Of a stretch of DNA of 64,000 nucleotides, positions 7,181 to 61,270 are shown in pieces. The first letter of the stretch is position 1. Each line of letters opens with the position of its first letter. The position numbers were made by a program, and so were the translations under genes. Source of the stretch: Eledone cirrhosa (Eukaryota); NCBI GenBank assembly GCA_964016885.1, contig OZ024741.1, positions 301,692,001 through 301,756,000 of the forward strand, written 5' to 3'. Below the pieces are notes generated by a model. It was not told where the DNA came from and ran no database searches. It saw nothing but the letters and a program-made list of their open reading frames with translations.

Positions 7181-7195
7181 CTCCCTAGGTCAGAT

Positions 7196-7964: not shown

Positions 7965-8417
7965 CAACACACTGAGATGTGAACTCCCCTCAAGCTATAG
8001 GGACTTCTCCAGAACATGTAGACACCTCTTGGCCGGACCTCCCTCAACCTATATGAGCAGTAACAACACCATAGGTTGGGAACTCCCCTCAAGCCTTAGG
8101 GACCCACCATGGCTGAGCAGACACCATGATAGCCTAGAGATTGATTCTGACACAGCCTTTCTAATTTAGCCAACATCTTTATAACACGCACATTTTACCT
8201 TACTTGAATCTTCATTTTTTATTTTTCATTTGTTTTCTGTTTTCTTCACTTTATTGCCTTCTATTTCTTCATATGCATGGCACACATTTTATTTGATTAT
8301 CTTATTTTGTTTTATTCTTTTACCATCTTGTTCCTCCTACCACTTTATCCAAAATCTTTCTGACTTTGTGATTGGTTATATGGTTATAGCACACATACAT
8401 TTTATTTTATTTGAATC

Positions 8418-9761: not shown

Positions 9762-9816
9762 ACTGCCTGAAGAGGTCACAGCCAAAGATGGCTGTCACCG
9801 AAATATATATAACAGT
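9762..9816 (+). ncRNA. Hammerhead ribozyme (family B)
   Basis: actgc-CTGAAGA-ggtcacagccaaagatggctgtcacc-GAAA-tatata-TA-acagt, with one stem I mismatch. Confidence 0.8.
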
Positions 9817-9954
9817 AATAAACAAAGCCAAATGTTAAACATTTTACTTATTTATTTTATTTTACATTACCCCGGAGTAACCAAACCAACCTGCGCACTT
9901 CGTCGAGTGTTCCAATTTGCAAACTGAGGTGTTGGCATACAACCAACATATACT

Positions 9955-10768
<814 letters not shown>

Positions 10769-11141: not shown

Positions 11142-11149
<8 letters not shown>

Positions 11150-11545
11150 AGATCAAAAGATGGTTAAAGGAGTTCCATGTATTTTATTATGCGCATTTCA
11201 AAAACAAACATCATCATGCAATAATATTTGTGTTTTCATCAGATAAAACAGGAGAACATGATATGAAGGCTAAAAAACACTTGTGGATAGTGCAGTTTTA
11301 AATCAACACTATCCACAAGTGTTTTTTAGCCTTCATATCATGTTCTCCTGTTTTATCTGATGAAAACACAAATATTATTGCATGATGATGTTTGTTTTTG
11401 AAATGCGCATAATAAAATACATGGAACTCCTTTAACCATCTTTTGATCTTATATTATGCATACTCCAGTCCTACAAACTGTAGAGTGCTTCTTATCCGAT
11501 ATCTGCATTGCTTTATTGTACTACAATAAAACTCACCTCCTACAT
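11142..11545 (+). mobile_element. Fold-back PLE mini-element family A (arms 11142-11292 / 11307-11457, tail 11458-11545)
   Basis: ~150-bp inverted repeat whose sequence matches the pLTR at 1070-1310. Confidence 0.92.
11349..11419 (+). ncRNA. Hammerhead ribozyme (family A); antisense copy at 11180-11250
   Basis: tgttttat-CTGATGA-aaacacaaatattattgcatgatgatgtttgttttt-GAAA-tgcgca-TA-ataaaata. Confidence 0.88.
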
Positions 11546-19807: not shown

Positions 19808-21559
19808 AAGGAGAAAATTGGAAGTGTGTAACACTCCACTTATCAAATAGGCAGTATATGGTTAGCTCAATGTCAGAGGACAGAGCCGTAATACAATTAA
19901 CAACAAAGAGCGCTTAGAACATAGGTATATCTTTAATTGCTAACAGTGTTTCGTCCACACTAGAAGTGGGACTCTTCAGAGCATAAAGAGTAAATACATA
20001 GTATACAAGCATTGACAAAGCCAAAACAGAAGAATATATGTGGGGATACCATAAGTTGGGAGGAGTTTAAAGAGTAAAGTAAAAGGAGTAAAATAAAAGG
20101 AGTAAAATAAGAAGAGTAAAATAAAAATATAGGATTAAGAATAAAAAAAAGAATAAGATTAAGAATAAAAATAAAAATAATAATAAAAATAAAAATAAAA
20201 ATGAAAATAAAAAATAATAAATAATAAAAAATAAAAAATAAAAAATAAAAAATAAGAAATGTTATCACTCACAGTTGGGCAGGGTTACGTTAACATACAG
20301 CTACATACAATTATATGCATAAGCATGAGCACCCGCATGCACCTACACACAAGCACCCGTATGCAACACATACAGTATACACTAATACAAATAACATATC
20401 ATAGACGGATGGGCATAAGTTAAGAGATAGAGATAGATAAAAAATAGATAAGAGGTAGATAAAAAATAGATAAAAAATAGATAAAAAATAGATAAGAAAT
20501 AGATAAAAAATAGATAAAAAATAGATAAAAGATAAAAAATAAGATAAAATAAAATAAAATAAAATAAAATAAAATAAAATAAAATAATATAAAGTAAAGT
20601 AAAATATACACCAGAAGATAAATAAAACAATGCACCAAAAAAAAATGGAGTAAAATATACACCATAAAGGAAGGTGTGGGTAAAGATAAGACTGGCAAAT
20701 GCATAAGCTATCAAGCTATGTTCAACAAGTGATATACGTACAACATATAAAATACACAAAAATATATATACAAGAATATATATAAAAAATATATATAAAA
20801 GAGACGTATATATAAGGATATATATATATATATATACACATATCAGTCCAAGTAATGCATATTTATAAAGATGTAACTGGGGGTAAAAAGATGTAATAAG
20901 GGTAATCAAGATGGTAATTATTAGGGCATGTAATAATAATATTATTATAGAAATCCTAAGGTGACACTAGTGTTGACTCATGGTGATATATGGAATATAT
21001 CAGGACACGAACGCCTTAGGTGTTGCAGTTAGCCACAGTTCAACAATAGAGTGTTCGAATGAGATTTTTTATATCGTGTCCTGATATATTCCATATATCA
21101 CCATGAGTCAACACTAGTGTCACCTTAGGATTTCTATAATAATATTATTATTACATGCCCTAATAATTACCATCTTGATTACCCTTATTACATCTTTTTA
21201 CCCCCAGTTACATCTTTATAAATATGCATTACTTGGACTGATATGTGTATATATATATATATATATATCCTTATATATACGTCTCTTTTATATATATTTT
21301 TTATATATATTCTTGTATATATATTTTTGTGTATTTTATATGTTGTACGTATATCACTTGTTGAACATAGCTTGATAGCTTATGCATTTGCCAGTCTTAT
21401 CTTTACCCACACCTTCCTTTATGGTGTATATTTTACTCCATTTTTTTTTTGGTGCATTGTTTTATTTATCTTCTGGTGTATATTTTACTTTACTTTATAT
21501 TATTTTATTTTATTTTATTTTATTTTATTTTATTTTATTTTATTTTATCTTATCTTATT

Positions 21560-23075
21560 TTTTATTTTTTATCTATTTTTTTATCTATTTTTATCTATTT
21601 CTTATCTATTTTTTATCTACTTTTTATCTATTTTTTATCTGTTTATCTATTTTTTATCTATTCTTATCTATTTTTTTTCTATTTTTTATCTATTTTTTAT
21701 CTATTTTTTTATCCATTTTCTATCTATTTTTATCTATTTTTAATCTATTTTTAATCTATTTTTAATCTATTTTTTATCTATTTTTTTATCTATTTTTTTG
21801 TCTATTTTTATCTATTTTTTATCTATTTTTTATCTATTTTTTATCTATTTTTTATCTATTTTTATCTATTTTTTATCTATTTTTTATCTATTTTTTATCT
21901 ATTTTTTATCTATTTTTTATCTATTTTTTATCTATTTTTTATCTATTTTTTATCTATTTTTATCTATTTTTATCTATTTTTTATCTATTTTTTATCTATT
22001 TTTTATCTATTTTTTATCTATTTTTTATCTATTTTTTATCTATTTTTTATCTATTTTTTATCTATTTTTTATCTATTTTTTATCTATTTTTTATCTATTT
22101 TTTATCTATTTTTTATCTATTTTTTATCTATTTTTTATCTATTTTTTATCTATTTTTTATCTATTTTTTAACTATTTCTATCTCTTAACTTGTGCCCATC
22201 CGTCTATGATACGTTATTTGTATTAGTGTATACTGTATGTGTTGCATACGGGTGCTTGTGTGTAGGTGCATGCGGGTGCTCATGCTTATGCATATAATTG
22301 TATGTAGCTGTATGTTAACGTAACCCTGCCCAACTGTGAGTGATAACATTTCTTATTTTTTATTTTTTATTTATTTCTTATTATTTTTTATTTTTTATTT
22401 TTTATTTTTTATTTTTTATTTTTTATTTTTTATTTTTTATTTTTTATTTTTTATTTTTTATTTTTTATTTTTTATTTTTTATTTTTTATTTTTTATTTTT
22501 TATTTTTTATTTTTTATTTTTTTATTTTTATTTTATTTTTTATTTTTTATTTTTTATTTTTTATTTTTTATTTTTTATTTTTTATTTTTTATTTTTTATT
22601 TTTTATTTTTTATTTTTTATTTATTTTTTATTTTTTATTTTTTATTTTTTATTTTTTATTTTTTATTTTTTATTTTTTATTTTTTATTTTTTATTTTTTA
22701 TTTTTTATTTTTTATTTTTTATTTTTTATTTTTTATTTTATATTTTTTATTTTTTATTTTTTATTTTTTATTTTATATTTTATATTTTTTATTTTTTATT
22801 TTTTATTTATTTTTTATTTTTTATTTTTTATTTTTTATTTTTTATTTTTTATTTTTTATTTTTTATTTTTTATTTTTTATTTTTTATTTATTTTTTATTT
22901 TTTATTTATTTTTTATTTTTTATTTTTTATTTTTTATTTTTTATTTTTTATTTTTTATTTTTTATTTTTTATTTTTTATTTTTTATTTTTTATTTTTTAT
23001 TTTTTATTTTTTATTTTTTATTTTTTATTTTTTATTTTTTATTTTTTATTTTTTATTTTTTATTTTTTATTTTCA
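21560..23075 (+). repeat. (TTTTTTATCTA)n ~21560-22180 and (TTTTTTA)n ~22355-23075 arrays
   Basis: Directly visible. Confidence 0.95.
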
Positions 23076-23293
23076 TTTTTATTTTTATTTTTATTATTAT
23101 TTTTATTTTTATTCTTAATCTTATTCTTTTTTTTATTCTTAATCCTATATTTTTATTTTACTCTTCTTATTTTACTCCTTTTATTTTACTCCTTTTACTT
23201 TACTCTTTAAACTCCTCCCAACTTATGGTATCCCCACATATATTCTTCTGTTTTGGCTTTGTCAATGCTTGTATACTATGTATTTACTCTTTA

Positions 23294-23339
23294 TGCTCTG
23301 AAGAGTCCCACTTCTAGTGTGGACGAAACACTGTTAGCA
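23294..23339 (+). ncRNA. Hammerhead ribozyme (family G); antisense copy at 19938-19983
   Basis: tgct-CTGAAGA-gtcc-cacttctagtgt-ggac-GAAA-cactg-TT-agca. Confidence 0.85.
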
Positions 23340-23410
23340 ATTAAAGATATACCTATGTTCTAAGCGCTCTTTGTTGTTAATTGTATATATATATATATGT
23401 ATATATGTAC

Positions 23411-26332: not shown

Positions 26333-26679
26333 ATAAAAGATGAAATCGAAAATGCAACAGGAGTCTTATTTAAAAATATATATATATATTTATTTGGTTC
26401 CTTTACCGGTTTCGCAGTTCTTCTGCTTTTCAAAAGTAGAGTTGAGATGGAGGGTCTGTGGTTTTTCTCACATCTGATGTGAGAAAAACAACAGACTCTC
26501 CATCTCAACTCTACTTTTGAAAAGCAGAAGAACTGCGAAACCGGTAAAGGAACCAAATAAATATATATATATATTTTTAAATAAGACTCCAGTTACATTT
26601 TCGATTTCATCTTTTTTTCTTTATACTTTCACTCGTGTAGGACACCTCGGTTATTTTTCATTTTGTAAAAAAACCTCAC

Positions 26680-26686
<7 letters not shown>
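26333..26686 (+). mobile_element. Fold-back mini-element of Neptune-like family H (centre 26475), with U3-A8 HHRs at 26513-26550 (+) and 26400-26437 (-)
   Basis: Near-perfect palindrome plus tail; matches 49830-50040 and 28444-28808. Confidence 0.9.
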
Positions 26687-27961: not shown

Positions 27962-28808
<847 letters not shown>

Positions 28809-33195: not shown

Positions 33196-33756
33196 TGGTG
33201 GCTGCCAACTCGTTTTCGAGTACGGCCACTACTTTATATCCATGTAGGGATCCCCTACCGATGCACTGAACGAGTGTGACTTTTTAGTCCAGCCAGCGAC
33301 TTGAAAACTCTGGTACAAACACTACCCTTGTGACAATTACTGACACATAGTGCTGGGCCCATGGTACCATGTGATGACAAGTGCAGAGAGATCTCCAGAT
33401 ATAAAGCAATGCCTGTGCCGTGAAATTTTTATAGTGAGCAAAGGCACTGTACAAAGCCAGTCCCACTCTCTTAACCAACATGATATTTACCAAAAAAGAA
33501 GAACAAGTCAACATCATTGGATACCATCAGGGTTGCAGGTGTTATATCAGAGTTTTCTTTCTCCTAGAATTCTGCCTTGACAAAGGCTAAGGGGTCATCT
33601 CTCCTGGTGATTTTGGATGGCCATTGACTCTTAAGAGCTCCTTTTCCCTTTGACAGGTTTTGTTTTTAGTCCTGCAGGATGTCCAAAGTCACCCTCCTCA
33701 CCAAGAAACCTTGGTGGGGTTGCCAGTTTACTCGCCAACGACCCGACCATGAGACA
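33196..33756 (-). mobile_element. Non-autonomous RTE-related retroposon (~560 bp) with (ATGT)n tail
   Basis: The minus strand has RTE-5'UTR-like ggacatcc..taaaaac and ctaggagaaagaaaactctga, a 3' stem-loop, then (ATGT)n. The 3' end is repeated at 3458. Confidence 0.55.
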
Positions 33757-36131
33757 AACATTACTGATCCCCAAGAACAAAAGCACCCACTTGGCAAAGG
33801 ACTATCGACCCATTGCATGCCAGAACCTGATGTATAAGATGTATACAGCCTGCCTGAACCTATTCCTTCAAGATCACTGTGAAAATAATAACATCATCAC
33901 AGATGAACAAGCATCTGGAAAGAAAGGGGTTTGGGGCTGTGCTGAACAGCTCCTAATCAACAAAACTGCGATGTCGGAGGTGCCACAACTTAGGAGGAAT
34001 ATGGCTACAGTCTGGCTGGACTACAGGAAAGCTTTCGATTCTGTTCCCCACTCTTGGATGATAGAGGCTCTCCAACTTGCTAAAGTCCCAGACATTATTG
34101 TCAGAGCCATAGAGAGGCTGTCTTCTTCTTGGGCTACTATCCTAAGGTTAAATACAAAGAGGGAGGATTCTATTCTCACTGATAAAATAAAATATTTCAG
34201 GGGTATATTTCAGGGGACAGTCTCTCTGTGATATTATTCATCTTGTCATTAAACCCCTTGTCCTTTCTGCTCAAGAAATGTGAGGGATACATCATTGGCT
34301 CACAGGAGGACAGAAATACGAACCTAACCCATAATTTCTTTGTGGACGATCTGAAATTCTATGCCAAGAACATGGATGGGATGAAGAAAAATCTTGACCT
34401 GGTTACAATGTTCCCAAAGGATATAGGAATGGAGTTTGGCCAAGATAAATGCTCATACATGACTGTAAAGCGGGGAAAAACAACAACCCAATCTAGCAAC
34501 ATTGTCTTCAATGTCCTAACTGTTTCACCGATATCTGATGAGGACTGCTACAGATATCTGGGGATAGATGAGAACATATCCTATAATGGTATCTGTAATA
34601 AAGAACGCGTAACCAGGGAATACTACACCCGATTAAGAAAGATCTGGTCATCGGAACTCTCTGCGCAAAACAAAACAGTGGTTCACAATGTGTTTGCTGT
34701 GCCTGTCCTAACACCAACGTTTGGAAAAGTCAATTGGACGATAGATGAAATCCGAGCAGTTGATGTTGGAACTCGAAAAATACTGAACAACACCGGAAAC
34801 TTCCACATCAACAGTGACATAGACCGCCTTACTTGAAACGTAAGCAGGGAGGCAGAGGCCTAACATCAGTCCAGACAACATGTGAATGTCGCATCATATC
34901 TCTCCGATAACATCTACGGACCTCGAAGCGTAGGAGCCCGTTTCTCGAGCAAGTCTATCTGCATGAAACAGATAAGATCATGAGAGTTGGGAAGGAACTC
35001 CTCGAGAGATATTTCCTGTGTAATAGTCAAAAACTCATACCCAGGGAAGTCGCTCAGCAGTATCGCAGTGAATCGATGGATAAAAAACTGCATACTTATC
35101 AGCAAAGAATCATGCATGCATATGTTGCAAGGAAGCTCCAGAGTGAGAGTAATATAGATAAAGAAATTAGTCTATATTGGACCAACAACGGCGATATTAG
35201 TCCCCACTTTGAAGGATACGATTTTGCAATCCAAGAACAGGAGTTTAACACGAAATATCTGATTCACAAATGAGATAGGGATGCAGGCAAAACACCTAGA
35301 TGTGATAACAAGTGTAGACTGCAAAACTAACATCGAGGATATCACCCATGTCATCAGCAGCTGTCCAAAGATGTCATTTCGGTACTATCTACCTATGAGG
35401 CATGATGTAGTGGCCAAAATACTGTACAATGCAGTTCTTTAAAAGGATAGCCCCGATAATAAACACATTAAAAGCTACAGCAGTGTGGAAGACATCCATG
35501 TACATAATATGAAGGAGTACTGGTGGAATGTTCCAGTAAAAACCCCAATAAAATGCAGGCATAACAGACCAGATATTATGATATGGGACAGGGAGAAGAA
35601 AACATGCACAGTAGTGGAAATTAGCTGCCCAGCAGATGCCAATATAATATCAAAGATTAGTGAAAAGGAGAATATTTATGCAGAACTGATGAGAAATCTG
35701 CAGATACTCCACCCTGATTACACCTTCAGATTTATGGCTGTGATTATTGGGGCACTGGGGTATGTTAGTAACTGCCTCAATACAAATCTTGAGAAGCTAA
35801 GCTTCACAGGAACTGAAAGAACACAACTAGTTAGGAAATTACAAGTACAATCCATTAATGGAACAGTAAAAATATGTAATATATTCCAAAACTTTTGCAT
35901 CTAATAACTGCACATACACATGTACAGATGCAAAGCATATACACATGCACACATACAACTCAAAACATACACATCCACACATACAATAACATTCATATCT
36001 ACACATGCATGCATACATATCTACCTAGTTGATGTTGTGTAAATTCCAATGAGAGAGTCTTTTGTCTATGTTAGAAACCGACTCTCTCTTTAATGGTAAA
36101 ACTTTGTGAAATTATAAAACCAGAAGAATTT
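33752..36131 (+). mobile_element. 5'-truncated R4/Dong-clade non-LTR retrotransposon (RT, CCHC, RLE), frameshifted
   Basis: YRPIACQNLMYK, WLDYRKAFDSVPH, GIFQGDSLS, FFVDDLK, YRYLG, CRLCK..EDITHVISSC, RHD, HNRPDI..WD, VVEISCP. Ends in (CATA)n. Confidence 0.92.
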
Positions 36132-36411
36132 CATACATACATACACACCACACACATACATACATACACTCATGCATGCATACAAATATACATATATATT
36201 TACATACGTTTATATTTAGACATTGCTCTTCAAGCAAGTATTAATTATGAATTGAGCAGATAGATTGTGAACTGTGAATAATACAATGTTATTATTTTGG
36301 GGGGGCGGGGGGTAGTATTCGTTTTTTTTTTAAAACACATTTATCATTTATAGTAAAGTGTATTTGCAAGAGTGTGTATTGATGTAGAGGGTGAAGGAGG
36401 TCACTTAATTG

Positions 36412-36690
36412 ATGTGGAGACAATAAAAGAACAATGAAGAAGTAGCACTTGTTTTTCGTTCTTGGCCCAAAATATTGAATAGTGTCAGTAAAGTAGGTTA
36501 AACTAAAAGGTTAAACTTGTATCTATTGTGCCGGGGATAAAAACAGTATACACAGAATGACGAACAAAACAAAGAGTGAAGGGGAAGAATTAGAATATAT
36601 GTTATAGAAAAGCGGTGAATAAAATAGAAGCAGCGAAAAGACAGGAAATTAATACGTTGAAAATATAGGAATGTAAATATGTAGATCATA
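36412..36690. repeat. Diverged interspersed repeat, homologous to 47150-47490
   Basis: Shared gtggaga..caatgaagaagt.gcacttgt..tcgt.cttg.cc..atattgaata...aactaaaaggttaaa. Confidence 0.65.
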
Positions 36691-36755
36691 CATACATACA
36701 TACATACATACATACATACATACATACATACATACATACATACATACATACATAC

Positions 36756-38142
36756 AGTCAGGTGACAACTACAGATATCTTGGACAGGATGAGAATGTCA
36801 GATATGATGGACCCATAAATAAGGAGAGAACCAGAACTGAATACCTCAGAAGAGTAAAGAAAATATGATCATCAGAACTGTCAGCGTACAACAAATACAT
36901 TGCCCACAATACTTATGCTGTGCCAATTCTAACGCCAACATTTGGCCTACTGAACTGGTCATTGCAAGAACTAAGTGAGATGGATGTTAGAACTCGAAAA
37001 CTTCTCAGTGTTACTGGGAACTTTAACATCAATGGTGATGTGGATAGGCTATACTTCTCACGCAAGGAAGGTGGCCGGGGTCTAAAATCAATATTAACAA
37101 CATATGAGACCCAGATAGTAACACTGAAGCAACCATCTTGCCCAGGTTTATGAGCATGAAAAAAGAAATATCATTAGAATAGCGACTGATCTGGAGGAGA
37201 GATATGGAATAAAGCCTGATATAAATCTCTCACCCAGAGAAATCGGAAGATCCTATTCAATGTTCAAACAAGATTAAAAAATTGACCAATTTACAAAAAA
37301 AGTTGTGCATGGATACTTGAGGCGTAAAACACAGACCAGAGAGGGGATAAACCACTCAAAAAGCCTGGTATGGAGTTCCGACAAGTTTATGACATCACAC
37401 CTTGAGGGATATCTCTATGCAATACAGGAACAAGAACTCCCTACCAAATATCTGCTGCACAAAAGGGGAGGGCCAGCAGCTGACAATAAATGTAGGCTAT
37501 GTAAAACAAAGATCGAGGATGTAAGCCACATTGTTGCCAGCTGCGAAAGAATGTCATCTCGCTACTACCTCCCCATGAGACACGATGGGATAGCTAGAAC
37601 CATCTGGAACGCACTTCGGAAAACAAAATTAACAACAAATGAGGAAGAATATATTGAGACAGATGGCACTAAGGAATACTGGTGGAACCTGAAAATAAAA
37701 ACTGCCACCAAATTAAAGCACAACCGGCCTGATATTGTAGTTTGGGACCACACATTGAAAACGTGTTCTGTTGTGGAGATCAGCTGCCCACTTGATGTAA
37801 ACGTTGTCAGAAAAATACAGGAGAAGGAGGACATCTGCGGACCATTGATGAGGAGTTTACAAAGCCAGTATCCAAGATACACCTTTAGCTTCATACCCAT
37901 CATTATTGGTGCTACGGGTTATATACCAACCCGCTTGGACCAAAGTATGACTGAACTTGGATTTGCGGACAAAAAGGGCAGCTCCCTAATTCATAGTCTA
38001 CAAATGGCTGCGATAGCTGGCACCTTCAAAATTTGCAAAACATTCTTGCGATTCAAGGGATGACAATTTCTTTTCTTTTACAACCTTGCCACCAGGAAGG
38101 TGGCCGGTAAAAAATATACTCGAAATTAAGAGAAAGAGAAAA
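36756..38142 (+). mobile_element. 5'-truncated R4/Dong LINE, second subfamily, embedded in (CATA)n
   Basis: YRYLG, AVPILTPTFG, DRLY..RKEGGRGL, CRLCKTKIEDVSHIVASC, RHD, HNRPDIVVWD, VEISCP. Has a 3' UTR hairpin gccacc/ggtggc and (CATA)n on both sides. Confidence 0.92.
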
Positions 38143-38299
38143 CATACATACATACATACATACATACATACGTACATCCATACGTACATACATATATGCA
38201 TACACACAGAGTCATATATACATACATACACACACAGTCAACGCGATCAGTCGCATATTTTGGCGTGGGAGACTATTTATTAAATTTAAGATTAATATT

Positions 38300-41200
38300 A
38301 TCCCCAACAGTAATGCCACAACTACAGTCATGTTGAATAACTGGTTATTCTTCTAACTATATCTACTGAAGGCACGTTTTATTCGAATTCGTAGAGATAT
38401 CCGACTAAATACATAATTCATTTTACAAGGATTTGCTACAAGCAGCATGGTGGAACATAACATCAACAACATTAAGGAAGTATCGAAGATAAACAACGAG
38501 AAAGGTAAACAAAATGTATTCAGTTGTAGCTACCTAGATAAGAAAACACCAAGTAGAGACATGATTGTCGGCTACCGGTACAAAAAACTGATATTCTATC
38601 GGAGGTATCTTACTGACCTCTACCAACAAGTTCTTAAGGGAGATACACTTATACCAGAATGGTTGACATTAGCACAAACATTACTGATCCCCAAGAACAA
38701 AGACACCCACTTGGCAAAAAACTACCGACCCATTGCATGCCAGAACCTGATGTATAAGAAACCAAAATTATAAATCGCATTTCTTTTGGAGATGCGAACT
38801 TAATGATGATTTATTTAATTGTTATAAAATGGCAAAAAACAATCCCGCCATTGGCTATATTAACAGAATGAAGCTACACTGGGACGAAATGCACCCATAA
38901 CTAAATTGTTTCACAGCGAAACAATTACGCCAACAAGCGACGTTTGTTGAACGTAAAAATAAGATAAATATTATTGATTGTAAGTCCCCCACAACAAACA
39001 TGGAATCAACAACACGTGCTACAGGTCGCCATGATACTAGACTTCCTAGAAGTCAGGTCGAACAACGCCTTGAAACAACTATGCCTGTAAGAAACTTGAC
39101 ACCACGTGTACCATCTAAGTCTACCTCGAATGCTGGGGAAAACACTAACGATAATAATAATAATCGAAGAAATAATAATAATAATCGAAGAAATTTGACA
39201 CCACGTCTACCGTCTGAGTATACCTCGACTATCGTGGAAAATACTATCGATAATGATTATAATCAAAAGTATAAACAATTGAAAATTTCACTCAACGAAA
39301 TCTTCCAGAGAGAAATTAATTCATGTATAAATATCTCTCTTGCTGAACGTATTAAAACGACAATATTTAATTTTAAAAAAATAAATAATGAAATATTACG
39401 TGTTATTGACGAAATAGTGGATGAATATTTACGACGGATAAAAACCCCAACATTTTAGCAAATCAACGCCTGTTTATGTGCCTTAGCAACGACAGTGAAG
39501 TATTATATTGGTGATAGCAGAGATATTAACAAGAACAGAATACCAACATATATAACTAAAATACCAACATATATAACTAAAATAGAAAAGAAGATTGCTG
39601 ACCTACGAAAAAACATAGGATATGTGACAATCCTCTTTACATGCAAACAAACACACAAAAACCTCACCCACACCAACAAAGAGTGAAAAATAAAATAGAG
39701 ACGATGTTTGGTAACAGTAGAACCAGAACTTTCAATATAAGCTGATCACCCTCAAACAAGAATTGAGAGCTGTTAGCGAAAAACGCCGATACCTGAAGAA
39801 GGTTGATGAGAGAAAAATGCTTAATAAAAGATTCAGACGAAATCAAACATCAGTTTATAGAGATATGAAGAACAAAATAATAAGTGTCAATGAGGCCCCA
39901 TCCCAGAAAGACATAGATTCCTTTTGGAGCAAAATATGGGGTGAAAAGAAGAATTTCAACCAAGATGCAGTGTGGCTAAGAGAAATCCGAAAGAACTATT
40001 GCTCCTACACTACAACAAAAACATACGAAATAAGTGAGGGTATCCTTGAGACTGTGATAGGAAAACTCCAAGATAAGAAAACACCAGGAAGAGACATGAT
40101 TGTCGGCTACTGGTAAAAAAAACTAATATTCTATCGGAGGTATCTTACTGACCTCTACCAACAAGTTCTTAAGTTAGATACACTTATACCAGAATGGTTG
40201 ACATTAGCACAAACATTACTGGTCCCCAAGAACAAAGACACCCGCCTGGCAAAAAACTACCGACCCATTGCATGCCAGAACCTGATGTATAAGATGTATA
40301 CAGCCTGCCTGAACGTATTTTTCGAAGATCACTGTGAAAATAATAACAGCATCACAGATGAGCAAGCAGCTGGAAACAAAAGGGGTTTGGGGATGTGCTG
40401 AACAACTCCTAATCAACAAAACTGCGATGTCAGAGGTGCGAAAACTTAAGAGGAATATGACTACAGTCTGGCTGGACTACAGGAAAGCTTTCGATTCTAT
40501 TCCCCACTCTTGGATGATAGAGGCTCTCCAACTTGCTAAAGTCCCAGACATTATTGTCAGAGCGATAGAGAGGCTGTCTTCTTCTTGGGCTACTATCCTA
40601 AGATTAAAGAAAGAGAGGGAGGACTATATTTTCACTGATAAAATAAAATATTGCAGGGGTATATTTCAGGGGGACAGTCTCTCTGTGATATTATTCATCT
40701 TGTCATTAAACCCCTTGTCCTTTCTGCTCAAGAAATGTGAGGGATATATCATTGGCTCACAGGAGGACAGAAATACGAACCTAACCCAAAATTTCTTTGT
40801 GGACGATCTGAAATTCTATGCCAAGAACATGAATGGGATGAAGAAAAATCTAGACCTGGTTACAACATTCTCAAAGGATATAGGAATGGAGTTTGGCCAA
40901 GATAAATGCTCATACATGACTGTAAAGTGGGAAAAAACAACAACTCAATCTAGCAACATTGTCATCAATGGCATAACTGTTTCACCGATATCTGATGAGG
41001 ACTGCTACAGATACCTGGGGATAGATGATAACATATCCTATAATGGTATCTGTAATAAAGAACGCGTAACCAGGGAATACTACACCTGATTAAGAAAGAT
41101 CTGGTCATCGGAACTCTCTGCGCAAAACAAAACAGTGGCTCATAATGTGTTTGCTGTGCCTGTCCTAACACCAACGTTTCGAATACTCAATTGGACGATA

Positions 41201-42085
41201 GACGATATCCGAGCAGTTGATGTTGGAACTCGAAAAATACTGAACAACACCGGAAACTTCCACATCAACAGTGACATAGACCGCCTTTACTTGAAACGTA
41301 AGCAGGGAGGCAGAGGTCTAACATCAGTCCAGACAACATTTGAATGTCGCATCATATCTCTCCGATAACATCTACGGACCTCGAAGCGTAGGAGCCCGTT
41401 TCTCGAGCAAGTCTATCTGCATGAAACAGATAAGATCATGAGAGTTGGGAAGGAACTCCTCGAGAGATATTCCTTGTGTGATAATCAAAAACTCACACCC
41501 AGGGATGTCGCTCAGCAGTATCGCAGTGAATCGATGGATAAAAAACTGCATGCCTATCAGCAAAAAATCATGCATGGATATGTTGCCAGGAAGCTCCAGA
41601 GTGAGAGTAATATAGATTAGGAAAGTAGCCTATCTTGGACCAACAACCTCTATATTGGCTCTCACTTTGAAGGATACGCTTTTGCAATCCAGGAACAGGA
41701 GATTAACACGAAATACCTGATTCACAAAAGAGATAGGGATGCAGGCAAAACACCTAGATGTGATAATAAGTGCAGACTCTGCAGAACTAACATCCAGGAT
41801 ATCACCCATGTCATCAGCAGCTGTCCAAAGGTGTCATCGCGGTACTATCTACCTTTGAGGCATGATGTAGTGGCCAAAACACTGTACAATGCAATCCGTA
41901 AAAAATATAGCCCCGATAATAAACACATTAAAAGCTACAGCAATGTGGAAGACATCCATGTACATAATATGAAGGAGTACTGGTGGAATGTTCCAGTAAA
42001 AACCCCAATAAAATGCAAGCATAACAGACCAGATATTATGATATGGGACGGAGAAGAAAGCATGCACACTAGTGGAAATTAGCTG
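38300..42085 (+). mobile_element. Near full-length R4/Dong LINE (decayed, 3'-truncated)
   Basis: 5' UTR and N-terminal region shared with the 53570 copy. RT motifs at 40080-41090, CCHC at ~41770, RLE PD motif at ~42025. Confidence 0.92.
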
Positions 42086-44979: not shown

Positions 44980-45170
44980 TCAGATAGGGTGTGGCAAAAT
45001 CCAGGTAGACCATAACCTACCAGAGTACTCGATACTTGGGGTAGTAGAGTGGGTAGTATGAAAAGATTCAGGACCCCGACGGCTGAGCTCCGGCTGTTTC
45101 AACAGCTAAATCCGAACTCCAGCTGTTGAATCGGCAGGAGCTCACCCGTCGGGATCCTGAATCTTTTCAT
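44980..45170 (-). mobile_element. Family F fold-back (45057-45170) with minus-strand tail
   Basis: Imperfect palindrome. The tail tactacccactctactaccccaagtatcgagtactc matches the tail at 46514-46591. Confidence 0.75.
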
Positions 45171-45183
45171 ATGTGTGTGTAAT

Positions 45184-46384: not shown

Positions 46385-46589
46385 TAGGAACGAGTAGGGC
46401 CCCGACGGCTGAGCTCAAGCCGTTTCGACGGCTAATTCTGGACTAAAATTTTAGTCCAGAATTAGCCGTCGAAACGGCTTGAGCTCAGCCGTCGGGGTCC
46501 TACTCGTTCCTATTACCCACTCTACTACCCTAAGTATTGAGTACTTTGGTGCGTTATGGTCCACTTGGTTCCTTACCACATTTCCTTCG

Positions 46590-46591
<2 letters not shown>
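46385..46591 (+). mobile_element. Family F fold-back mini-element (~65-bp arms centred ~46448, tail 46514-46591)
   Basis: taggaacgagtagggccccgacgg...gactaaaa/ttttagtc...ccgtcggggtcctactcgttccta. Confidence 0.88.
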
Positions 46592-47617: not shown

Positions 47618-48240
47618 TTAGAATTGGGGCTCTGAAATAGCGATATATATATGAATGTATATATAGTGTATTTTGCAATACACTGTATGCTTAATTAAAA
47701 GTATTTTCTCCCCTGTTTGCTGAAAATTAAAGTAAGTGAGAATGTCACTACTCTAATACAATAGCATAAGGTCTTCGAGAAGCTTTTAATTAAGCATACA
47801 GTGTATTGCAAAATACACTATATATACATTCATATATATATCGCTTTTTCAGAGCACCAATTCTAATTTTCAATTTCTGCTTGACCGGCAACCGCTCTGT
47901 ATAATCAGTTCCTGATTACTACTCGAATTCTATAAGAATTAAACATTCATGATTTTCAGCAAACAGGCGGAGTACTTAGCTTTGATAAGCACCAAAAAGT
48001 GCGAAACAGAGCTCTGTCAGCTTTATCTCCCCTTTTTGCTGAAAATTAAAGTAAGTGAGACTGTCACTACTCTAATACAATAGCGTAAGGTCTTCGAAAT
48101 GCTTTTAATTAAGCATACAGTGTATTGCAAAATACACTATATATACATTCATATATATATATATATATATATATGAATGTATGGATAAATATACTATACA
48201 TACATTCATGTATACATGGCTATTTCAGAGCACCAATCCT
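47618..48240 (+). mobile_element. Retrozyme-like element: 319-bp tandem unit with variant HHR and inverted 5' stub (47618-47706)
   Basis: Unit repeats at 47707 and 48026. A second locus lies at 61346-61745. Confidence 0.85.
47978..48022 (+). ncRNA. Variant hammerhead ribozyme (U3-A8 core)
   Basis: agct-TTGATAA-gcac-caaaaa-gtgc-GAAA-cagagctctg-TC-agct. Stem I is extended by ttttcagcaaa../..tttgctgaaaa. Confidence 0.85.
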
Positions 48241-48331: not shown

Positions 48332-48374
48332 AGTATATGTATATATGCGCATATGTCTAGATTTCGGTTGTCTT

Positions 48375-48875
48375 TTGCTTTTGATTATTTTCAAAAGCAA
48401 AAGACAAACGAAATCACTGAAAACATTACTCGCCAATGCCAAATTACCTACCACACACCCACAACCAACTGTCAAAAAATGTGGTCGCTCTAATTGTGCA
48501 ACCTGCACTCACCTCATTGAAGGCAACATGTATACATTTAATTCAGGACAAAATTTTGCTGTAAAAATTCACTTCACTTGCTCATCAAAAAATCTACTTT
48601 ATACCATTAAATGTAAAGGATGCAATGAAGATTATATAGGACAAACTAAACTCACACTCAGAAACAGAATGACAGTTCATCGCCAACAATTACGAGATCC
48701 TACGATAAGACAGATACCACTAAGCGCACATCTAGACATATGCGCAAGTAATAAGACACCCAAATTCCAAGTCTTCCCATTTTACCTTTGCGCTAACAAT
48801 ACAACAGAACAAATACTAATAAATAAGGAAAATATGTTTATTCAAAAATATAGACCAGCATTAAATATGGTTTAA
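48375..48875 (+). pseudogene. 5'-truncated Neptune-like PLE linker + GIY-YIG endonuclease
   Basis: SKRQTKSLKTLL..KKCGRSNCATC..FTCSSKNLLYTIKCKGC..DYIGQT..LRNRMTVH..SAHLDIC..KENMFIQKYRPALN. Confidence 0.9.
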
Positions 48876-49499
48876 TATACATTATGTCAACACGATAACA
48901 TGCTAACCGTCCAAGCATAGACACACGCATAACACCTGCTACTTTAGAAAATAAAAACCCGAACTAAATAAACCTTAACATACGTTTGCGCTGACAATAC
49001 AACAGAACAAATACGAATAAGTAAGGAAAATATGTTCATTCAAAAATATTCCTACTAAAGGAATCCTTTTCCTACACCCACACACACAATATATATATAT
49101 TCTCTGCATCTTAACATGCTAACCATACTCCCACACACGCATAACACCCATACACACACATAACAACCCCCACTTCCACACACGCACAACTCCCTCCTCC
49201 ATGTCTACTAAGAGAATCACTTTCCTACACATATATACACACACAATATATATATTCTCTCCATCTTAACATACTCCCACACACATAACACCCATATATA
49301 CACACACACAACTCTCTCCCCCATTTCTACTAATAGAATCATCTTCCAATACACACACACACAAGCACACAAATAAACATACATATCTTTACTTTCTTTA
49401 TTTCAATAGAAAATCTGAATTCTGACACCCCAGAACAATTCTTCCATCCCATTTCTCGTGACCATTATCTTTTGCTTGTCATAAAATTCTCTAAAAAGG

Positions 49500-49830
49500 C
49501 TACCAAATAGATTTCCAAATAAGGGCGCGAAATTTAATGAAAACTTGTTCACGTGACAGCCATAATTTCATTTATAACCAATCAAATTACGTATTTTTTT
49601 TTTAAAAAAGCCTTCGTGAGCCCCTTTTTTTAAGTAAAAAGAAATTCAAACACTCATGTATAAAAAAACAACCTGAGACCCCCTCCCCCTTTGTTTGAAG
49701 AACTTTGTAACGCGAACTGGCGCGAAATTTATTATAATTATTGACCAACCAATCAAATTACTTCTCTAAAAACCTGGGATTTCGACCCACTTTTTCCATA
49801 TAAAACAAGTAACATTCAAAGACCAACCAG
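49500..49830 (+). promoter_or_regulatory. Putative Pol II promoter in the family H pLTR: 2x E2F-like, 2x CCAAT, E-box, TATA
   Basis: GGCGCGAAA at 49524 and 49719; AACCAATCA with CCAAT at 49578 and 49749; TCACGTGA at 49549; TATAAAA at 49799; CA dinucleotide at 49828-49829, 30 nt downstream of the TATA T. Confidence 0.65.
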
Positions 49831-49866
49831 ATGTGAGAAAAACCACAGACCCTCCATCTCAACTCT

Positions 49867-49904
49867 ACTTTTGAAAAGCAGAAGAACTGCGAAACCGGTA
49901 AAGG
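49867..49904 (+). ncRNA. Variant hammerhead ribozyme (U3-A8 core) of family H
   Basis: ctt-TTGAAAA-gcag-aagaa-ctgc-GAAA-ccgg-TA-aag. Confidence 0.78.
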
Positions 49905-50259
49905 AACCAAATAAATATATATATTTTTTTTTTTAATAAAACTCCAGTTGCATTTTCGATTTCATCTTTTATTCTTTATACTTTCACTCGTGTAGGACAC
50001 CTCGGTTATTTTTCATTTTGAAAAAAAACCTCACTTTCTAATATATATATATGGGATAACAAGTTATCGTTATAGGTAATCCCGTTAGAGGTAGTCCAGT
50101 TAGAGTATTCCGTGTTGTGGATGGTTTTAACGTGTGGCTTAGTTTGACTCAACAAGACGCTTCCATAGTAATGTATCGAGTTCGCGGTAATTTCTATGCA
50201 GGTAATTAAAGAAAGAAGAGTAACATGGTTGACTGTACAATAAGGGCTTTATTCACAGT

Positions 50260-53460: not shown

Positions 53461-53569
53461 AACGGAATAGAGACATATATAGCCATACATACATCTCCAT
53501 ACATACATACATACATACATACATACATACATACATACATACATACATACATACATACATACATACATC

Positions 53570-56500
53570 TCCGACAGTAATGCCACAACTACCAGTCATG
53601 TTGTATAACTGGAGATTCTTCTAACTATATCCACTGATGACACATTTTATTCGAATTCCGACTAAATACATAATTCATTTTACAAGGGTTTGCTACAAAC
53701 TGCATGGCGGAACACAACATCAACAACAACAACAACAACAGTGGAATACCGAAGAAAAACAAGAAAGGTAAACAAAATATATTCAGTTGCAGCTACAGAA
53801 GAAACCGAAATTATATATCGCATTTCTCTTGGAGTTGCGAACTTAATGATGATTTGTTTATTGTTATAAAATGGCAAAAAACAATCCCTCCATTGGCTAT
53901 ATGAACAGAATGAAGCTACACTGGGACAAAATACACCCAGAGCTAAATCATTTCACGGTGAAACAATTACGCCAACAAGCAACGTTTGCTGAACGTAAAA
54001 ATAGGATAAATATTGTTAATTGTAAGTCCCCCACAACAAACATGGAATCAACAACACGTGCTACAGGTCGCCATGTTACTAGACATCCTAGCAGCCAGGT
54101 CGAACAGTGCCTTGAAACAACTATGCCTGTAAGAAATTTGACACCATGTGTACCATCTAAGTCTACCTCGACTATTGTGGAAAATACTATTGATAATAAT
54201 AATAATCAAAAGTATAAACAATTGAAAATTTCCCTCAACGAAATCTTCCAGAGAGAAATTAATTCATGTATAAATATCTCTCTTGCTGAACGTGTTAAAA
54301 CGACAATATTTAATTTAAAAAAAAAAAAATAATAATAATGAAATATTACGTGTTATTGACGAAATATGGGATGAATATTTACGACGGATAAAAACCCGCC
54401 TGTCTATATGCCTTAGCAACGACAGTGAAGCATTATCTTGATGATAGCAGAGATAAGAACAAATCACCACCAAAAATACCATCATATATAACTAAAATAG
54501 AAAAAAAGATTGCTGACCTACGAAAAACCATACGATATGTGACAATCCTCTTTACATGCAAACAAACACAAAACAACCTCACTCCTCACCAACAAAGAGT
54601 GAAAAATAAAATATAGACGATGTTTGGTAACAGTAGAACCAGAACTCTCCAACATAAGCTGATCACCCTCAAACAAGAATTGACAGCTGTTAGCTAAAAG
54701 CGCCGATACCTGAAGAAGGTAGATGAAAGAAAAGTGCTTAATAAAAGATTCAGACGAAACCAAACATCAGTCTATAGAGATATGAAGGGCAAAATAATAA
54801 GTGTCACTGAGGCCCCATCCCAGAAAGACATAGATTCCTTTTGGAGAAAAATATGGGGTGAAAAGAAGAATTTCAACCAAGATGCAGTGTGGCTAAAAGA
54901 AATTCAAAAGAACCATTGCTCCTACACTAAAACAAAAACATACGAAATAAGTGAGGGTATCCTTGAGACTGTGATAGGAAAACTCCAAGATAAGAAAACA
55001 CCAGGAAGAGACATGATTGTCGGCTATTGGTACAAAAAGCTGATATTCTATCGGAGGTATCTTACCGACCTCTACCAATAAGTTCTTAAGGGAGATACAC
55101 TTATACCAGAATGGTTGACATTAGCACAAACATTACTGATCCCCAAGAACAAAGACACCCACTTGGCAAAAAACTACCGACCCAATGCATGCCAGAACCT
55201 GATGTATAAGATGTATACAGCCTGCCTGAACCTATTCCTCTGTGAAAATAATAACATCATCACAGATGAACAAGCAGCTGGAAAGAAAGGGAATGTGCTA
55301 AACAACTCCTAATCAACAAAACTGTGATGTCGGAGATGCGACAATCTAGTAGGAATATGACTACAGTCAGGCTGGACTACAGGAGAACTTTCGATTATGT
55401 TCCCCACTCTTGGATGATAGAGGCCCTCCGACTTGCTAAAGTCCCAGACATTATTATCAGAGCGATAGAGAAGCTGTCTTCTTCTTCGGCTACTATCCTA
55501 AAGTTAAAGACAGAGAAGGAGGACTCTATTTTCACTGATAAAATATAATATCGCAGAGGTATATTTCAGGGAGACAGTCTCTCTCTGATATTATTTATCC
55601 TGTCATTAAACCCGTTGTCCTTTCTGCTCAGGAAATGTGAAGGATACATCATTGGCTCACAGGAGGACAGAAATACGAACCTAACCCATAATTTCTTTGT
55701 GGATGATCTGAAACTCTATGCCAAGAACATGGATGGGATGAAGAAAAATTTGACCTGGTTACAACATTCTCAAATCATATAGGAATGGAGTTTGGCCAAG
55801 ATAAATGCTCATATATGACTGTAAAGCGGGGGAAAACAACAACCCAATCTAGCAACATTGTCTTCAATGGCCTAACTGTTTCACCGATATCTGATGAGGA
55901 CTGCTACAGATATCTGGGGATAGATGAGAACATATCCTATAATGGTATCTGTAATATGGAACGCGTAACCAGGGAATACACACCCGATTAAGAAAGATAT
56001 GGTCATCAGAACTCTATGCACAAAACAAAACAGTGGCTCACAATGTGTTTGCTGTGCCTGTTCTAACACCAACTTTTGGAATACTTAATTGGACGATAGA
56101 CGAAATCCGAGCAATTGATTTTAGAACTGATGAAAAACTACATGCTTATCAACAGAAATCATGCATGGATATGTTGCCAGGAAGCTCCAAATTGAGAGTA
56201 ATATCGATAATGAAAGTAGTCTTGAACCAACAACCGCTATATTGGCTCCCACTTTGAAGGAAACGCTTTTGTAATCCGAGAAGAGGAAATCAACACGAAA
56301 TACCTGATTCACAAAAGAGATAGGGATACAGGCAAAACACCTAGATGTGATAACAAGTCAGACTCTGCAGAATTAACATCGAAGATGTCACCCATGTCAT
56401 CACCAGCTGTCCAAAGATGTCATCGCGGAGCTCTCTACCTTTGAGGCATGATGTAGTGGCCAAAACACTGTACAATGCAATCCGTAAAAAAGATAGCTCC

Positions 56501-57142
56501 GATAATAAACACATTAAAAGCTACAGCGATGTGGAGGACATCCATATACATAATATGAAAGAGTACTGGTGAAATGTTCCAGTAAAAACCCCAATAAAAT
56601 ACAGGCATAACAGACCAGATATTATGATATGGGACAGGGAAAAGAAGGCATGCACAGTAGTGGAAGTTAGCTGCCCAGCAGATGTCAATATAATATCAAA
56701 GATTAGCGAAAAGGAGAATATTTATGCAGAACTGATGAGAAATCTGCAGATACTCCACCCTGATTATACCTACAGATTTATGCCTGTGATTATTGGGGCA
56801 CTAAGATATGTTAGCAACTGGGCTTCACAGGAACAGAAAGAACACAACTAGTTAGGAAACTACAAGTACAATCCATTAATGGAACAGTAAAAATATGTAA
56901 AACATTCCAAACATGTTGCATCTAATAAATGCACATGTACAGATACTAAGTATATACTCATGCATACATACAACTCAAAACATACACATCCCCACATACA
57001 ATAAAATCCATATCTACACATGCATGCATGCAGGCATGCATATATATCTACCTAGTTGATGTTGTGTAAATTCCAATGAAAGAGTCTTGTGTCTATGTTA
57101 GAAACCGACTCTCTCTCTATTGGTAAAACTTTGTGAAATTAT
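53570..57142 (+). mobile_element. Full-span but decayed R4/Dong LINE, preceded by (CATA)n
   Basis: Colinear with 38300-42085 and 33752-36131. Has RT and RLE motifs, an internal deletion near 56120, and many stops. Confidence 0.92.
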
Positions 57143-58324
57143 ATTATTATTATATACAATTATTAATATTATTATATATATATATATGTGTGTGTATGTG
57201 TGTGTGTGTGTGTTTGTGTGTGTATGTGTGCGCGCGCGCGTGTGTGTGTGTGTGTGTAGTTCAAGGAGACAACAAACAGAGGTACAAAAAGTCTTACTAG
57301 TTTTACGCTTTATATTGGAAAGAGGAAAGAAAGATCGACGTGTCAGGCTTCAGGAGTACGAAATAGGGACAGGATCACAATGGAGAAACGATCCAGTAAA
57401 GACACACAAAAAATATATATATATATATATGCGTGTGTGTGTGTGCATTACGATTTAAATTTTTCATTTATTATATAGATAATGAAAAAAGGGGGCAGGG
57501 GTAAAGAAGGGCAGGTCATTCCTTTACTTTCCTATACAACCTGATCTGCCCCTTTTTTTTCATTGCTCTTTTTGTCTTTATTTTTTTTTTATATTTCCAT
57601 CAATGTATAACTCCAGTCTGTAAAATATAGTTGACAATATGTTTGTGTATAACAGATAACAAAATAAAATTCCATTGTTAACATTGACACAAAATATATA
57701 AAGTAATACAAAAAATAGACATGGTTAAGTTTCAGGTTAAATGCATGAGATATTGATCAGGTGTCTTTTATCCATGTGGATGCACTACAACGTGAAACTG
57801 AATAGACGGAGAATGTCTGGATGTATTGAGAAGTTTAAAATATTTGTTGCTTGAAATTACAATTTTCAAATTAATAGATAAATAATTTCCATGTCGGAAT
57901 TATTTTCATAAAAAAATTAAATCTGCAGCAAAATGCTCCCTCTACTTAAATAATCGAATAACTAGATCTCTTAATTGGACATCAAAGATCTCCAGAGATG
58001 CTTTATAGTGTGCAGTAAAACAGAAAATTAGCTTACAATTTCTGACACTGGCCGTGTACTGTAAAGATATGAAATTGCGATAATTACTTTAATGCCTATA
58101 GTTTTTAACAATTAGTTTTCATAGATGATCGTATTGCCGTGTTGTTTGATTTATTATTCATTCTGTCTTGACAGCTTATAGTCAAAGATGCATCAGATAA
58201 TAGTTGATAATCTACAGGGAAAACGGTGTCCGAAAAATCGTTTGTGTACATCGTCACCAATCATGTATTAAAACATTTTTTTTTTCTGTTCCACATTCGA
58301 TGGAGGAATGATTCAAGAAGAATA

Positions 58325-59474: not shown

Positions 59475-59775
59475 TTATGTAATATTCGGCTTGTAGTGGG
59501 AAAAAAGGGTTTTAGTTCTGTGACGGCAGAATAATGTTCGTTCAATTCTGTTATTCAGCAGTTTCTTCTTGTGTGTGATTATGTAATAAATCTCAAGATT
59601 ACACAATTTGCAGAAATTTTGGCTCCTGGAAAAGCTTTGGGTTTTAGCTAATTTCTCCCATTTTAGGGTAAACTTTTGATCGCTATCCCTGAGCGTCCAA
59701 GCTTTTTCTGCTAAAGTTGTTACATTTCTTTGGCTCTGGTGTTTTATTGAGTAAGAATGCCTATACAATCGAGAT
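59475..59775 (-). pseudogene. Hydra-like PLE GIY-YIG C-terminal fragment; UTR extends to ~58410 with degenerate HHR at 58522-58566
   Basis: RLYRH.YS...TTLAEKAWTLR..LKWEKL..CKLCNLEIYYI..LLNNRIE..FCRH. HHR reverse complement reads att-CTGATGA-aatg..catt-GAAA. Confidence 0.8.
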
Positions 59776-59785
59776 TTATATATAT

Positions 59786-61265
59786 ATAGTTAGGGAAGCA
59801 GAAAATTGCTTTTTGTGATCCAGTTCGTGGTTAAGAAAGCCAGTTTAATGGATGGTTTCAACGTACGGTTAGGGGTAACTCCACAAGTTTGTAAGAATTC
59901 CGTTCAATCTTGGAGTATAAAGTATAAAAGAGAAAACACAGGTAAGCATTAAGAGAAGGATTTTATCCAGGTATTTATGACCGTTTCATTGGTAAGTGCA
60001 ACCTTATATTGCTATACTGCAAATAGCAGCCACTCAATTATAATTGTTGTTCACAGTCCAAATTTTCAAAATAGTGTGTAAGTTACTCTTGAAATAATTC
60101 TTAATATATAGAGAAAAACATTTATTTGGAATTGTATTTACTAGTATAGAGAGAGGGGAATCAGAAGGTGAGGGGACTAACGGAATAGTATAGAGAGAGC
60201 GACTGGGAATACATTTAAAGCCCGTTGGTATACACACCGTTACGCAATGAAACATTCCCAGCATCGTTATGTAACTACCCTTGCAAACAAGACCTGGCAA
60301 CTGAGGGAAAGTAACCATCAATACACCCTGAAGTGGAAAAAATATCGAACGCGCCCCCATATCGGAGTGGTATGAGAAGCTGTCGATTATGCGACCTTGA
60401 GCTGTTCCACATCTTGAGTTCGAAGAATAAGTTACTCAACAATAAAATCGAAAGATCAATTTATTGTAACCACAGACTCAAAGAGAAGTTTTCGCACTAC
60501 AAATGCAAATCGAACCCTTAACCTCTTACTACCAACTGACAAACTGCATATACTTAGACTTTATACTCTCTTGTTGTATCTAAACCCTTTTAATTACCCA
60601 CAAAAACCAATACCTATATGCCCCCCTACTCCTTCATTCCTCTTCTATTTCTTCGTTTTTTCTTCCTTCCTTCCCTCCCCTTCTTGGTTGTCTTTTCTTT
60701 TCTTCTTTCTCCCCCCCCCCCCCCTTCTTTGCTTTTATTTTTGTCATTATTATCTTTATCTTTATTTTATATATATATATTTATCTCTTTATATCTCCCC
60801 CCCCCCTCTCTCTCTCTCTCTTTCTCTCTCTCTACTCTCTATCCATCCCTCCCACTATGATCAATTTAATTCTCTTTAACTCACTACATTCCACGACATG
60901 AAGTCTGCTATCAAAACTGATCAAGGAATCCTTCCACCTCTACCCCTCCCTCCATCTCAGTTTGTCACTCTACTTCCTAACTCTTCCCCCTTCCTCTCTC
61001 TCTATACTATTCCGTTAGTCCCCTCACCTTCTGATCCTCTCTCTATATACATGTAAATACAATTCCAAATAAATGTTTTTCTCTATATATTAAGAATTAT
61101 TTCAAGAGTAACTCATTATTTTGAAAATTTGGACTGTGAACAACAATTATAATTGAGTGGCTGCTATTTGCAGTATAGCAATATAAGGTTGCACTTACCA
61201 ATGAAACGGTCGTAAATACCTGGATAAAATCCTTCTCTTAATGCTTACCTGTGTTTTCTCTTTTA

Positions 61266-61270
<5 letters not shown>
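59786..61270. mobile_element. Inverted PLE insertion, family I (arms ~59922-60200 / ~60995-61270; tail 59786-59921 on minus)
   Basis: Reverse-complement arms, with a GIY-YIG remnant at ~60210-60521 (LKWKK..PYRSGMRSCRLCDLELFHI..LLNNKIE..CNH). Confidence 0.85.
61117..61218 (+). ncRNA. Variant hammerhead ribozyme (U3-A8 core, long stem II); antisense copy at 59972-60073
   Basis: tatt-TTGAAAA-tttgg...ccaat-GAAA-cggtcg-TA-aata. Confidence 0.7.

Follow-up and report, generated by a model that had tools for sequence, protein, structure and literature searches.

In Penelope-like elements (PLEs) it is standard to find inverted copies at the 5' end, a tail on one side only, a TA target and a hammerhead ribozyme within the pLTR (PMC8557442, PMC3846280, PMC8969392). 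The steps behind the head-to-head inverted ends of PLEs have been called undefined (PMC8557442), and self-priming on an antisense template has been proposed to account for them (PMC3846280). The protein of the Poseidon element is reported to cut and extend both target strands and to use uncleaved RNA, with its reverse transcriptase (RT) beginning at two positions within the RNA by which the tail is defined (Frangieh 2024, PMC11167929). Elements of the Neptune/Nematis type are marked by a CX4CXXC-type linker and a CCHH endonuclease (Craig 2021, PMC8557442), a U3-A8 variant of the hammerhead core has been described (Cervera 2014, PMC4209133) and the 3' pLTR of D. virilis Penelope can drive downstream transcription (PMC2377424). 

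Here we describe a PLE family found in a 64,000-nucleotide stretch of DNA from Eledone cirrhosa, the whole of which is referred to as the window. The family is represented by two mini-palindromes, A and B, and by a longer but 5'-truncated copy (Table 1; all positions are those of the window). In common with the EN+ PLE insertion unit (Craig 2021, PMC8557442; Arkhipova 2013, PMC3846280), the insertions have a head-to-head inverted pLTR, a tail on one arm only and a (TA)n target, and the pLTR is ~210 nt long, with a defined 5' end bearing a small hairpin and a hammerhead inside. They depart from that unit in that A and B are reduced to two pLTR arms with a joint symmetric at one base, and in that the tail of A and B is 60 nt rather than the 30–40 described (PMC8557442, PMC3846280). 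In addition, TATA lies outside the copied part, 30 nt before it, whereas in the description of Adineta Pen2a TATA and Inr are placed inside the pLTR.

Three other systems invite comparison. D. virilis Penelope has its start in the pLTR upstream of the hammerhead, where one is predicted here too, but its promoter, which has been measured, is internal and TATA-less (Schostak 2008, PMC2377424), in contrast to the upstream TATA/CCAAT/E2F-like arrangement predicted here. Anolis Poseidon PAc belongs to a different clade, but resembles what is proposed for the present family in having, in vitro, two internal RT starts that define the tail, extension of both target strands, an AT-rich target and no need for hammerhead cleavage (PMC11167929). 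Finally, non-LTR retrozymes are, like A and B, short non-coding derivatives of hammerhead-bearing PLE pLTRs; they are, however, head-to-tail tandems of units that each carry a hammerhead and are thought to depend on cleavage (Li 2026, bioRxiv 10.64898/2026.07.22.740005), whereas A and B are head-to-head and uncleaved.

The structure of the palindromes is ordinary for PLEs, and the inverted pLTR with a tail, in which the initial annotation saw a way of producing MITE-like palindromes, is the usual form of a PLE insertion. As to the proposed identity of the pivot with the sense start, no report equating an inversion point with a transcription start was found in the full-text literature, a scope that leaves subscription papers (e.g. 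Arkhipova 2006) to one side.

Table 1. Positions of the palindromes, the long copy and its predicted signals in the window
Feature	Position	Strand	Description
Mini-palindrome A	26333..26685	.	Short antisense arm, T26475, long sense arm and tail; in (TA)n
Mini-palindrome B	28444..28807	.	Short antisense arm, A28595, long sense arm and tail; in (TA)n
Inverted 5' junction of the long copy	48343..48415	.	25-nt inverted arm centred ~48387 and 17-nt inverted piece of 48731-48748
GIY-YIG endonuclease C-terminal remnant, 5'-truncated Penelope-like element	48387..48875	+	Above the Pfam cut-off (PF01541, E=9.2e-6)
Two promoter-like modules, in part repeats of each other	49500..49800	+	E2F-like GCGCGAAA (49525, 49720), then CCAAT (49578, 49749)
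TATA box (putative)	49799..49805	+	First T 30 nt before pivot
Turning base (pivot): pLTR 5' boundary, fixed, and predicted start of transcription at a YR step (C/A)	49829	+	Motifs, run depth
Bulged 8-bp hairpin, first pair at pivot base	49829..49859	+	-5.8 kcal/mol
Minimal type I hammerhead with the U3-A8 core variant and a palindromic helix III	49868..49903	+	Predicted cleavage after 49900
One-sided tail between two recurrent 3' ends (49980, 50040)	49981..50040	+	Run ends, palindrome arms

Identity of the element

A longer-protein search gave 23 matches from 163 candidates, the best being a 772-aa protein at 68% identity; the window protein is 67% identical to residues 611–772 of a 772-aa RT+EN relative. 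In its nearest relatives, which carry both RT and EN and reach 772 aa, EN comes last, and the RT part is gone from the window copy. When 13 relatives were aligned with the window protein, the order was RT first, then a CX4CXXC linker, then a CCHH-type endonuclease. The linker upstream of GIY-YIG has the CX2-5CXXC form of Neptune/Nematis elements, with C642, C647 and C650 invariant; the CCHH residues of canonical EN+ PLEs (C686, C689, H708 and H725) are invariant throughout, window protein included. On these sequence features we assign the element to the Neptune/Nematis-type Penelope-like retrotransposons. One full-length RT+GIY-YIG relative (P0017) is filed under a bacterial metagenome-assembled genome and is probably animal DNA carried in.

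Protein-based scans of metagenome contigs yielded 35 loci from 200 matches, all of other families, and 0/102 in genome contigs and 0/16 in viral contigs. Beyond one 24-nt low-complexity match, no pLTR match was seen among the 35 metagenome loci, nor did any of the 35 have an inverted pLTR junction usable for comparison.

The long copy had been regarded as the parent of A and B. All four arms of A and B depart from it at 49934 and 49940, however, and it is instead a dead, truncated sibling. Its own turn at ~48387 is specific to its locus, since the family extends upstream of 48391 in 180 RAD reads (run X16, below). At this junction a match of 3 nt links the inverted pieces 48731–48748 and 48391–48415, and so records template switching. 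The single ORF contig of run X7 has letters that are absent or rare in X1 and X16 at 48786 and 48927, as would be expected of a contig from a single copy.

In all, 16 local inverted matches were found in the window. Many further PLE-like insertions that are inverted or palindromic, belonging to several families, lie at 4494–9958, 10102–10540, 11145–11545, 19894–23383, 45001–45171, 46387–46590, 47618–47866 and 59922–61268; several of them have hammerhead matches (12 on the + strand and 7 on the - strand) and their joints are mostly offset. Decayed ORFs of other Penelope-like families are present at 5289–7964 and 59475–60520, with a weak, below cut-off GIY-YIG match at 7350–7964 inside a 617-nt inverted repeat. 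A non-LTR retrotransposon is represented by at least three decayed copies at 33635–42085 and 53567–57143, with RT (PF00078) and zf-RVT matches and, by eye, a restriction-like C-terminus.

Two palindromes with a common turning base

Each of the palindrome centres is flanked by TTTTCTCACATC and GATGTGAGAAAA, and a word search places the start of the right-arm word at 26476, 28596 and 49830 only. The equivalent of both centres in the long copy is A49829, so the claim of a common turning base holds in both of the palindromes that could be read directly (n=2). The base is preceded by C, and lies 30 nt past the first T of TATAAAA, exactly as first annotated. The arms match 49828/30–50040 of the long copy at 92–96%. 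Both palindromes are lopsided: the short (left) arm stops at the equivalent of 49969–49980 and the long (right) arm at 50040, with the tail on the right arm alone, as in PLE insertion units. Also as in such units, an inverted 5'-truncated copy adjoins the 5' end in A, in B and in the long copy. Where a target-site duplication might lie, both sides of A and of B are (TA)n runs.

The turn is symmetric at 49829 and self-complementarity around it amounts to just 1 bp, unlike the product of a simple self-annealing primer. The T- and A-centred words are mutual reverse complements, and for this reason the difference in centre base between A and B would be fragile in a short-read assembly.

Changes in the arms could be shared between loci or mirrored within each locus, and it is mirroring that is seen. 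Five substitutions are private to B (49866, 49867, 49944, 49967 and 49968), every one of them present in both B arms, and none of the five arm-specific variants (four in A, one in B) is common to the two loci. From arm to arm, A differs at 4 of 140 columns and B at 1 of 151. Given the private changes in both B arms and the lack of shared arm-specific variants, the mirror arm is rebuilt or homogenised at each locus.

Predicted promoter and hammerhead

A TATA-type Pol II start has TATA at about -30, a YR start and CCAAT at -60 to -100. At A49829 we find TATA at -30, CCAAT at -80, an E2F-like word at -109 and a YR step, with a second E2F-like/CCAAT module upstream; the motif names and spacings are those of consensus sequences, and their function is putative. 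The E2F-like word occurs just twice in the whole window, in these two modules, and 49500–49800 is multicopy in all four sequencing runs described below. TATAWAW stands at -32 to -28 before 512 of 55,082 unmasked + strand positions (0.9%), and before 146 of them (0.27%) if a YR start is also required. Judged by these motifs, A49829 is likely to be the sense transcription start of the element. The predicted promoter (49525–49805) also has TTTGAA-type words (49645, 49694) beside its two E2F-like/CCAAT modules, a combination that is a signature of cell-cycle gene promoters.

For comparison we used 12 related loci in which the hammerhead could be placed after the stop codon, six of them by eye, picked from 22 listed of the 35 metagenome loci. 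TATAWAW lies between stop and hammerhead in 3 of the 12, never at the 72-nt distance seen here, and TGACGT half-sites are present in 9, each above a resampled expectation of <1. From the rarity of TATA and the presence of these half-sites, the interval looks promoter-like in the relatives too, but of another type, and TGACGT there against E2F-like/CCAAT here suggests a promoter swap. Two other families in the window have both a palindrome and a longer copy, and neither has TATA at -30 from the turn (the nearest is 55 nt away in one, and there is none in the other); the relationship of TATA to turn therefore cannot be extended within the window.

We also considered a splice boundary at 49829 and rejected it: there is a CAG before 49831 that lacks a pyrimidine tract and a GTGAG at 49833, neither of which fits 49829. 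The pLTR does contain possible intron signals: besides this same GTGAG there is a GTAAA at 49898, on the cleavage triplet of the hammerhead, and a long pyrimidine tract is present together with TAG/G at 49993. In D. virilis Penelope an intron overlaps the hammerhead.

The predicted hammerhead has the conserved core, helix II, palindromic helix III and helix I of a minimal type I hammerhead, and a purpose-built descriptor matches it at 49871–49900 and in all four arms of A and B. No Rfam match reaches the gathering score anywhere in the window, a 21-nt hammerhead pattern had no match in the metagenome or viral contigs, and by energy alone 49868–49903 does not adopt the fold as a monomer. Five relatives (L001, at 1511–1535, L002, L007, L008 and L026) have the same helix III word, ACCGGT, in pLTRs that are otherwise unalignable. 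As speculation, this word could pair two RNAs in the manner of a retroviral dimer signal. By inspection, a private change in B at 28633–28634 (matching 49867) would add a fourth pair to helix I.

A 5' boundary common to the family

Four sequencing runs were compared with 48380–50045, skipping 49900–49942 as repeat: the contig sets X1 and X7, the RAD reads of X16, and X4, which is filed under another organism label. The kind of run is unrecorded for X7, which is accordingly not counted as RNA evidence, and runs X5, X6 and X8–X15, with small shares, lie outside the comparison. Summed contig depth rises into bin 49836–49891 by 5.0–5.6-fold in X1 and 6.9–17.9-fold in X7, and depth rises by 2.7-fold in X4 and 2.1-fold in X16, depth not being equivalent to copy number in any of these. 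Bin arithmetic puts the step at ~49828–49834 in X1 and at 49831–49832 in X7.

In X16, 49829 is one of six loose-end places among those listed (777 further loose-end rows are unlisted), with 173 RAD reads starting exactly there behind TA-rich, non-palindromic flanks. Flank agreement is 0.6, which implies more than one flank, though RAD reads start at fixed cut sites and the 173 may thus represent few loci. Because the flank is unlike the mirror arm, single-arm copies too begin at 49829. Among the loose ends listed for X7 are single ones at 49824 and 49832, not 49829. The depth step and the RAD loose ends together bear out the expectation that the 5' boundary is fixed at 49829 in the family as a whole.

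The 3' ends recur in the same way, with 37 X1 contigs ending at 49980 and 170 X16 reads at 50041, TA-rich letters following both. A model with two arms and one tail predicts a depth of 1,019k for X1 bin 49948–50003, against 991k seen, but overshoots in the X1 tail bin (565k predicted, 419k seen) and fails for X7 (2,737 predicted, 1,424 seen).

No strand-change joint at 49829 appears among the 15 listed of 55 joints in the four runs. The one strand-change joint among those 15, 48839/49790 (110 reads, one start), and the long copy at 48387 are inversions of the family that turn elsewhere. No read or contig among those listed for the four runs crosses a palindrome centre. In X16, 7 of the 8 listed begin or end places fall on AATT or CATG, words that are both absent from A and B, and the centre lies 142–212 nt from the outer ends, past the reach of most 150-nt reads. 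RAD design accounts for part of the missing fold-back joint at 49829, which for these reasons is not taken as a refutation.

How the palindromes may have formed

We propose, with a probability of roughly 0.45, that A and B are stump insertions: the same uncut RNA would have been reverse-transcribed twice, and the two cDNAs, each having run off its 5' end, would then have been joined to each other. The element's endonuclease would cut both strands of the (TA)n target and RT would start within the RNA, on one side at 50040 and on the other close to 49980. Both cDNAs would stop at the RNA's first base, 49829, and template jump or end joining, both of which are familiar from non-LTR reverse transcriptases, would unite the two blunt ends head to head and leave a single base in between.

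Several observations can be read in these terms. Copying of the same RNA twice would leave variants mirrored in both arms. The two recurrent 3' ends and the one-sided tail match the two internal RT starts of Poseidon, its extension of both strands and its use of uncleaved RNA. Since priming would be internal, any RNA starting at 49829 would suffice as template, the full-length transcript included, and the RNA of ~210 nt postulated in the initial annotation becomes unnecessary, reverse transcription in PLEs starting inside the RNA. On this reading the palindromes would correspond, among PLEs, to the strong-stop DNA of retroviruses. That the template was not cleaved at the hammerhead, as the same annotation held, still stands: the long arm needs an uncleaved RNA, and use of such RNA is reported for the Poseidon element (PMC11167929).

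The alternative that survives best, although we consider it unlikely, is that a single run-off cDNA turned at the RNA's first base, copied itself to ~49980 and was joined to the other side of the target. Mirrored variants would then follow automatically, and an A centre on the + strand, as in B, would be predicted; the short inverted pieces at the long copy's 5' junction fit self-copying, and the short-arm ends sit on TAT/TATA matches to the target. The turn itself is harder to accommodate, with its single base pair of self-complementarity: a hairpin at the cDNA end would restart at 49860 and give a joint offset by 31 nt rather than a symmetric one, and the T centre of A would need an added base or a later mutation. 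Taking one cDNA and two together, run-off at the start site is on balance the probable origin of the palindromes.

Also conceivable, if quite unlikely, is an inherited centre: a single master that was palindromic, or short and non-autonomous, or a few such masters, would have spread with the mirror renewed from cDNA or by gene conversion, in which case A and B would not be independent records of the start site. The variants at 49934 and 49940 that A and B have in common and the long copy lacks agree with this, and in X1 the depth of the arms is 21-fold that of the ORF, as in a short family that has been amplified. Homogenisation of the arms would be expected to give mirrored variants as well. 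Yet the 173 reads place the start of single-arm copies at the very same base, the centre base differs between A and B, and the founding turn must still have hit a 0.3–0.9% site.

A third candidate is the hairpin at 49829–49859, which might set the turn by signalling the growing cDNA to stop or to turn, with TATA incidental or the true start elsewhere. The pivot is the hairpin's first pair, just 10 of the element's 1605 positions close one of such stability, and its pair probabilities are 0.85–0.94 within a longer RNA; palindromes at pLTR 5' ends have also been reported in Adineta Pen2 and Pen3a (PMC3846280). The coincidence at A49829 is about as rare as the TATA match. We nevertheless regard this explanation as improbable, as the hairpin has only -5.8 kcal/mol as RNA and -3.1 as DNA, wider folds around the pivot are no better than shuffles (z -0.51, -0.71 and -0.13), a stall on an RNA stem would end the cDNA near 49860, and the spacing of TATA, CCAAT and E2F-like words would be left unexplained. 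Both coincidences would be explained if the RNA started here and had a hairpin at its 5' end. A block to RT by structure upstream of 49829 was considered separately and rejected (fold z -0.51 against shuffles).

Self-priming on an antisense RNA with its 3' end at 49829 is the published account of palindromes at head-to-head junctions (PMC3846280), but it offers no reason for a turn 30 nt below a sense-strand TATA or for single-arm starts at the same base, the sense RNA is the template in vitro (PMC11167929), and we hold it to be very improbable here. Scarcely credible is the idea that A and B are MITEs moved as DNA, or that sequencing or assembly produced them as fold-back artefacts, for which the inverted ends in TA, the near identity of B's arms and the absence of a listed read or contig spanning a centre might be cited, given the one-sided tail and PLE pLTR origin, the lopsided ends where a MITE would have symmetric TIRs copied as a unit, the differences between A's arms, the same centre at two loci with different flanks, and the private variants mirrored at each locus.

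Implications

Retroviruses and LTR elements make strong-stop DNA by priming near the RNA 5' end and running off at its first base. Under a more specific form of the two-cDNA reading, to which we commit ourselves only tentatively, the mini-palindromes would be integrated products of this kind, an RT dimer copying one capped, uncut sense RNA twice, once from each internal start, and joining the run-off cDNAs head to head. The comparison concerns how the process works: A and B would be primed by the target instead of a tRNA, and their integration as a palindrome would be a dead end.

If this were true, the commonest palindrome centre of a family would be its transcription start, and start sites could be read from DNA alone. 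It would also settle whether a sense or an antisense template underlies head-to-head PLE junctions; the turn at the predicted sense start and the single-arm copies that start at this base too speak for run-off on sense, uncleaved RNA. PLE stumps resemble TA-flanked MITEs and could be misfiled as such. Finally, read-through of a perfect hairpin of 140–150 bp would be likely to yield silencing RNA directed at the element.
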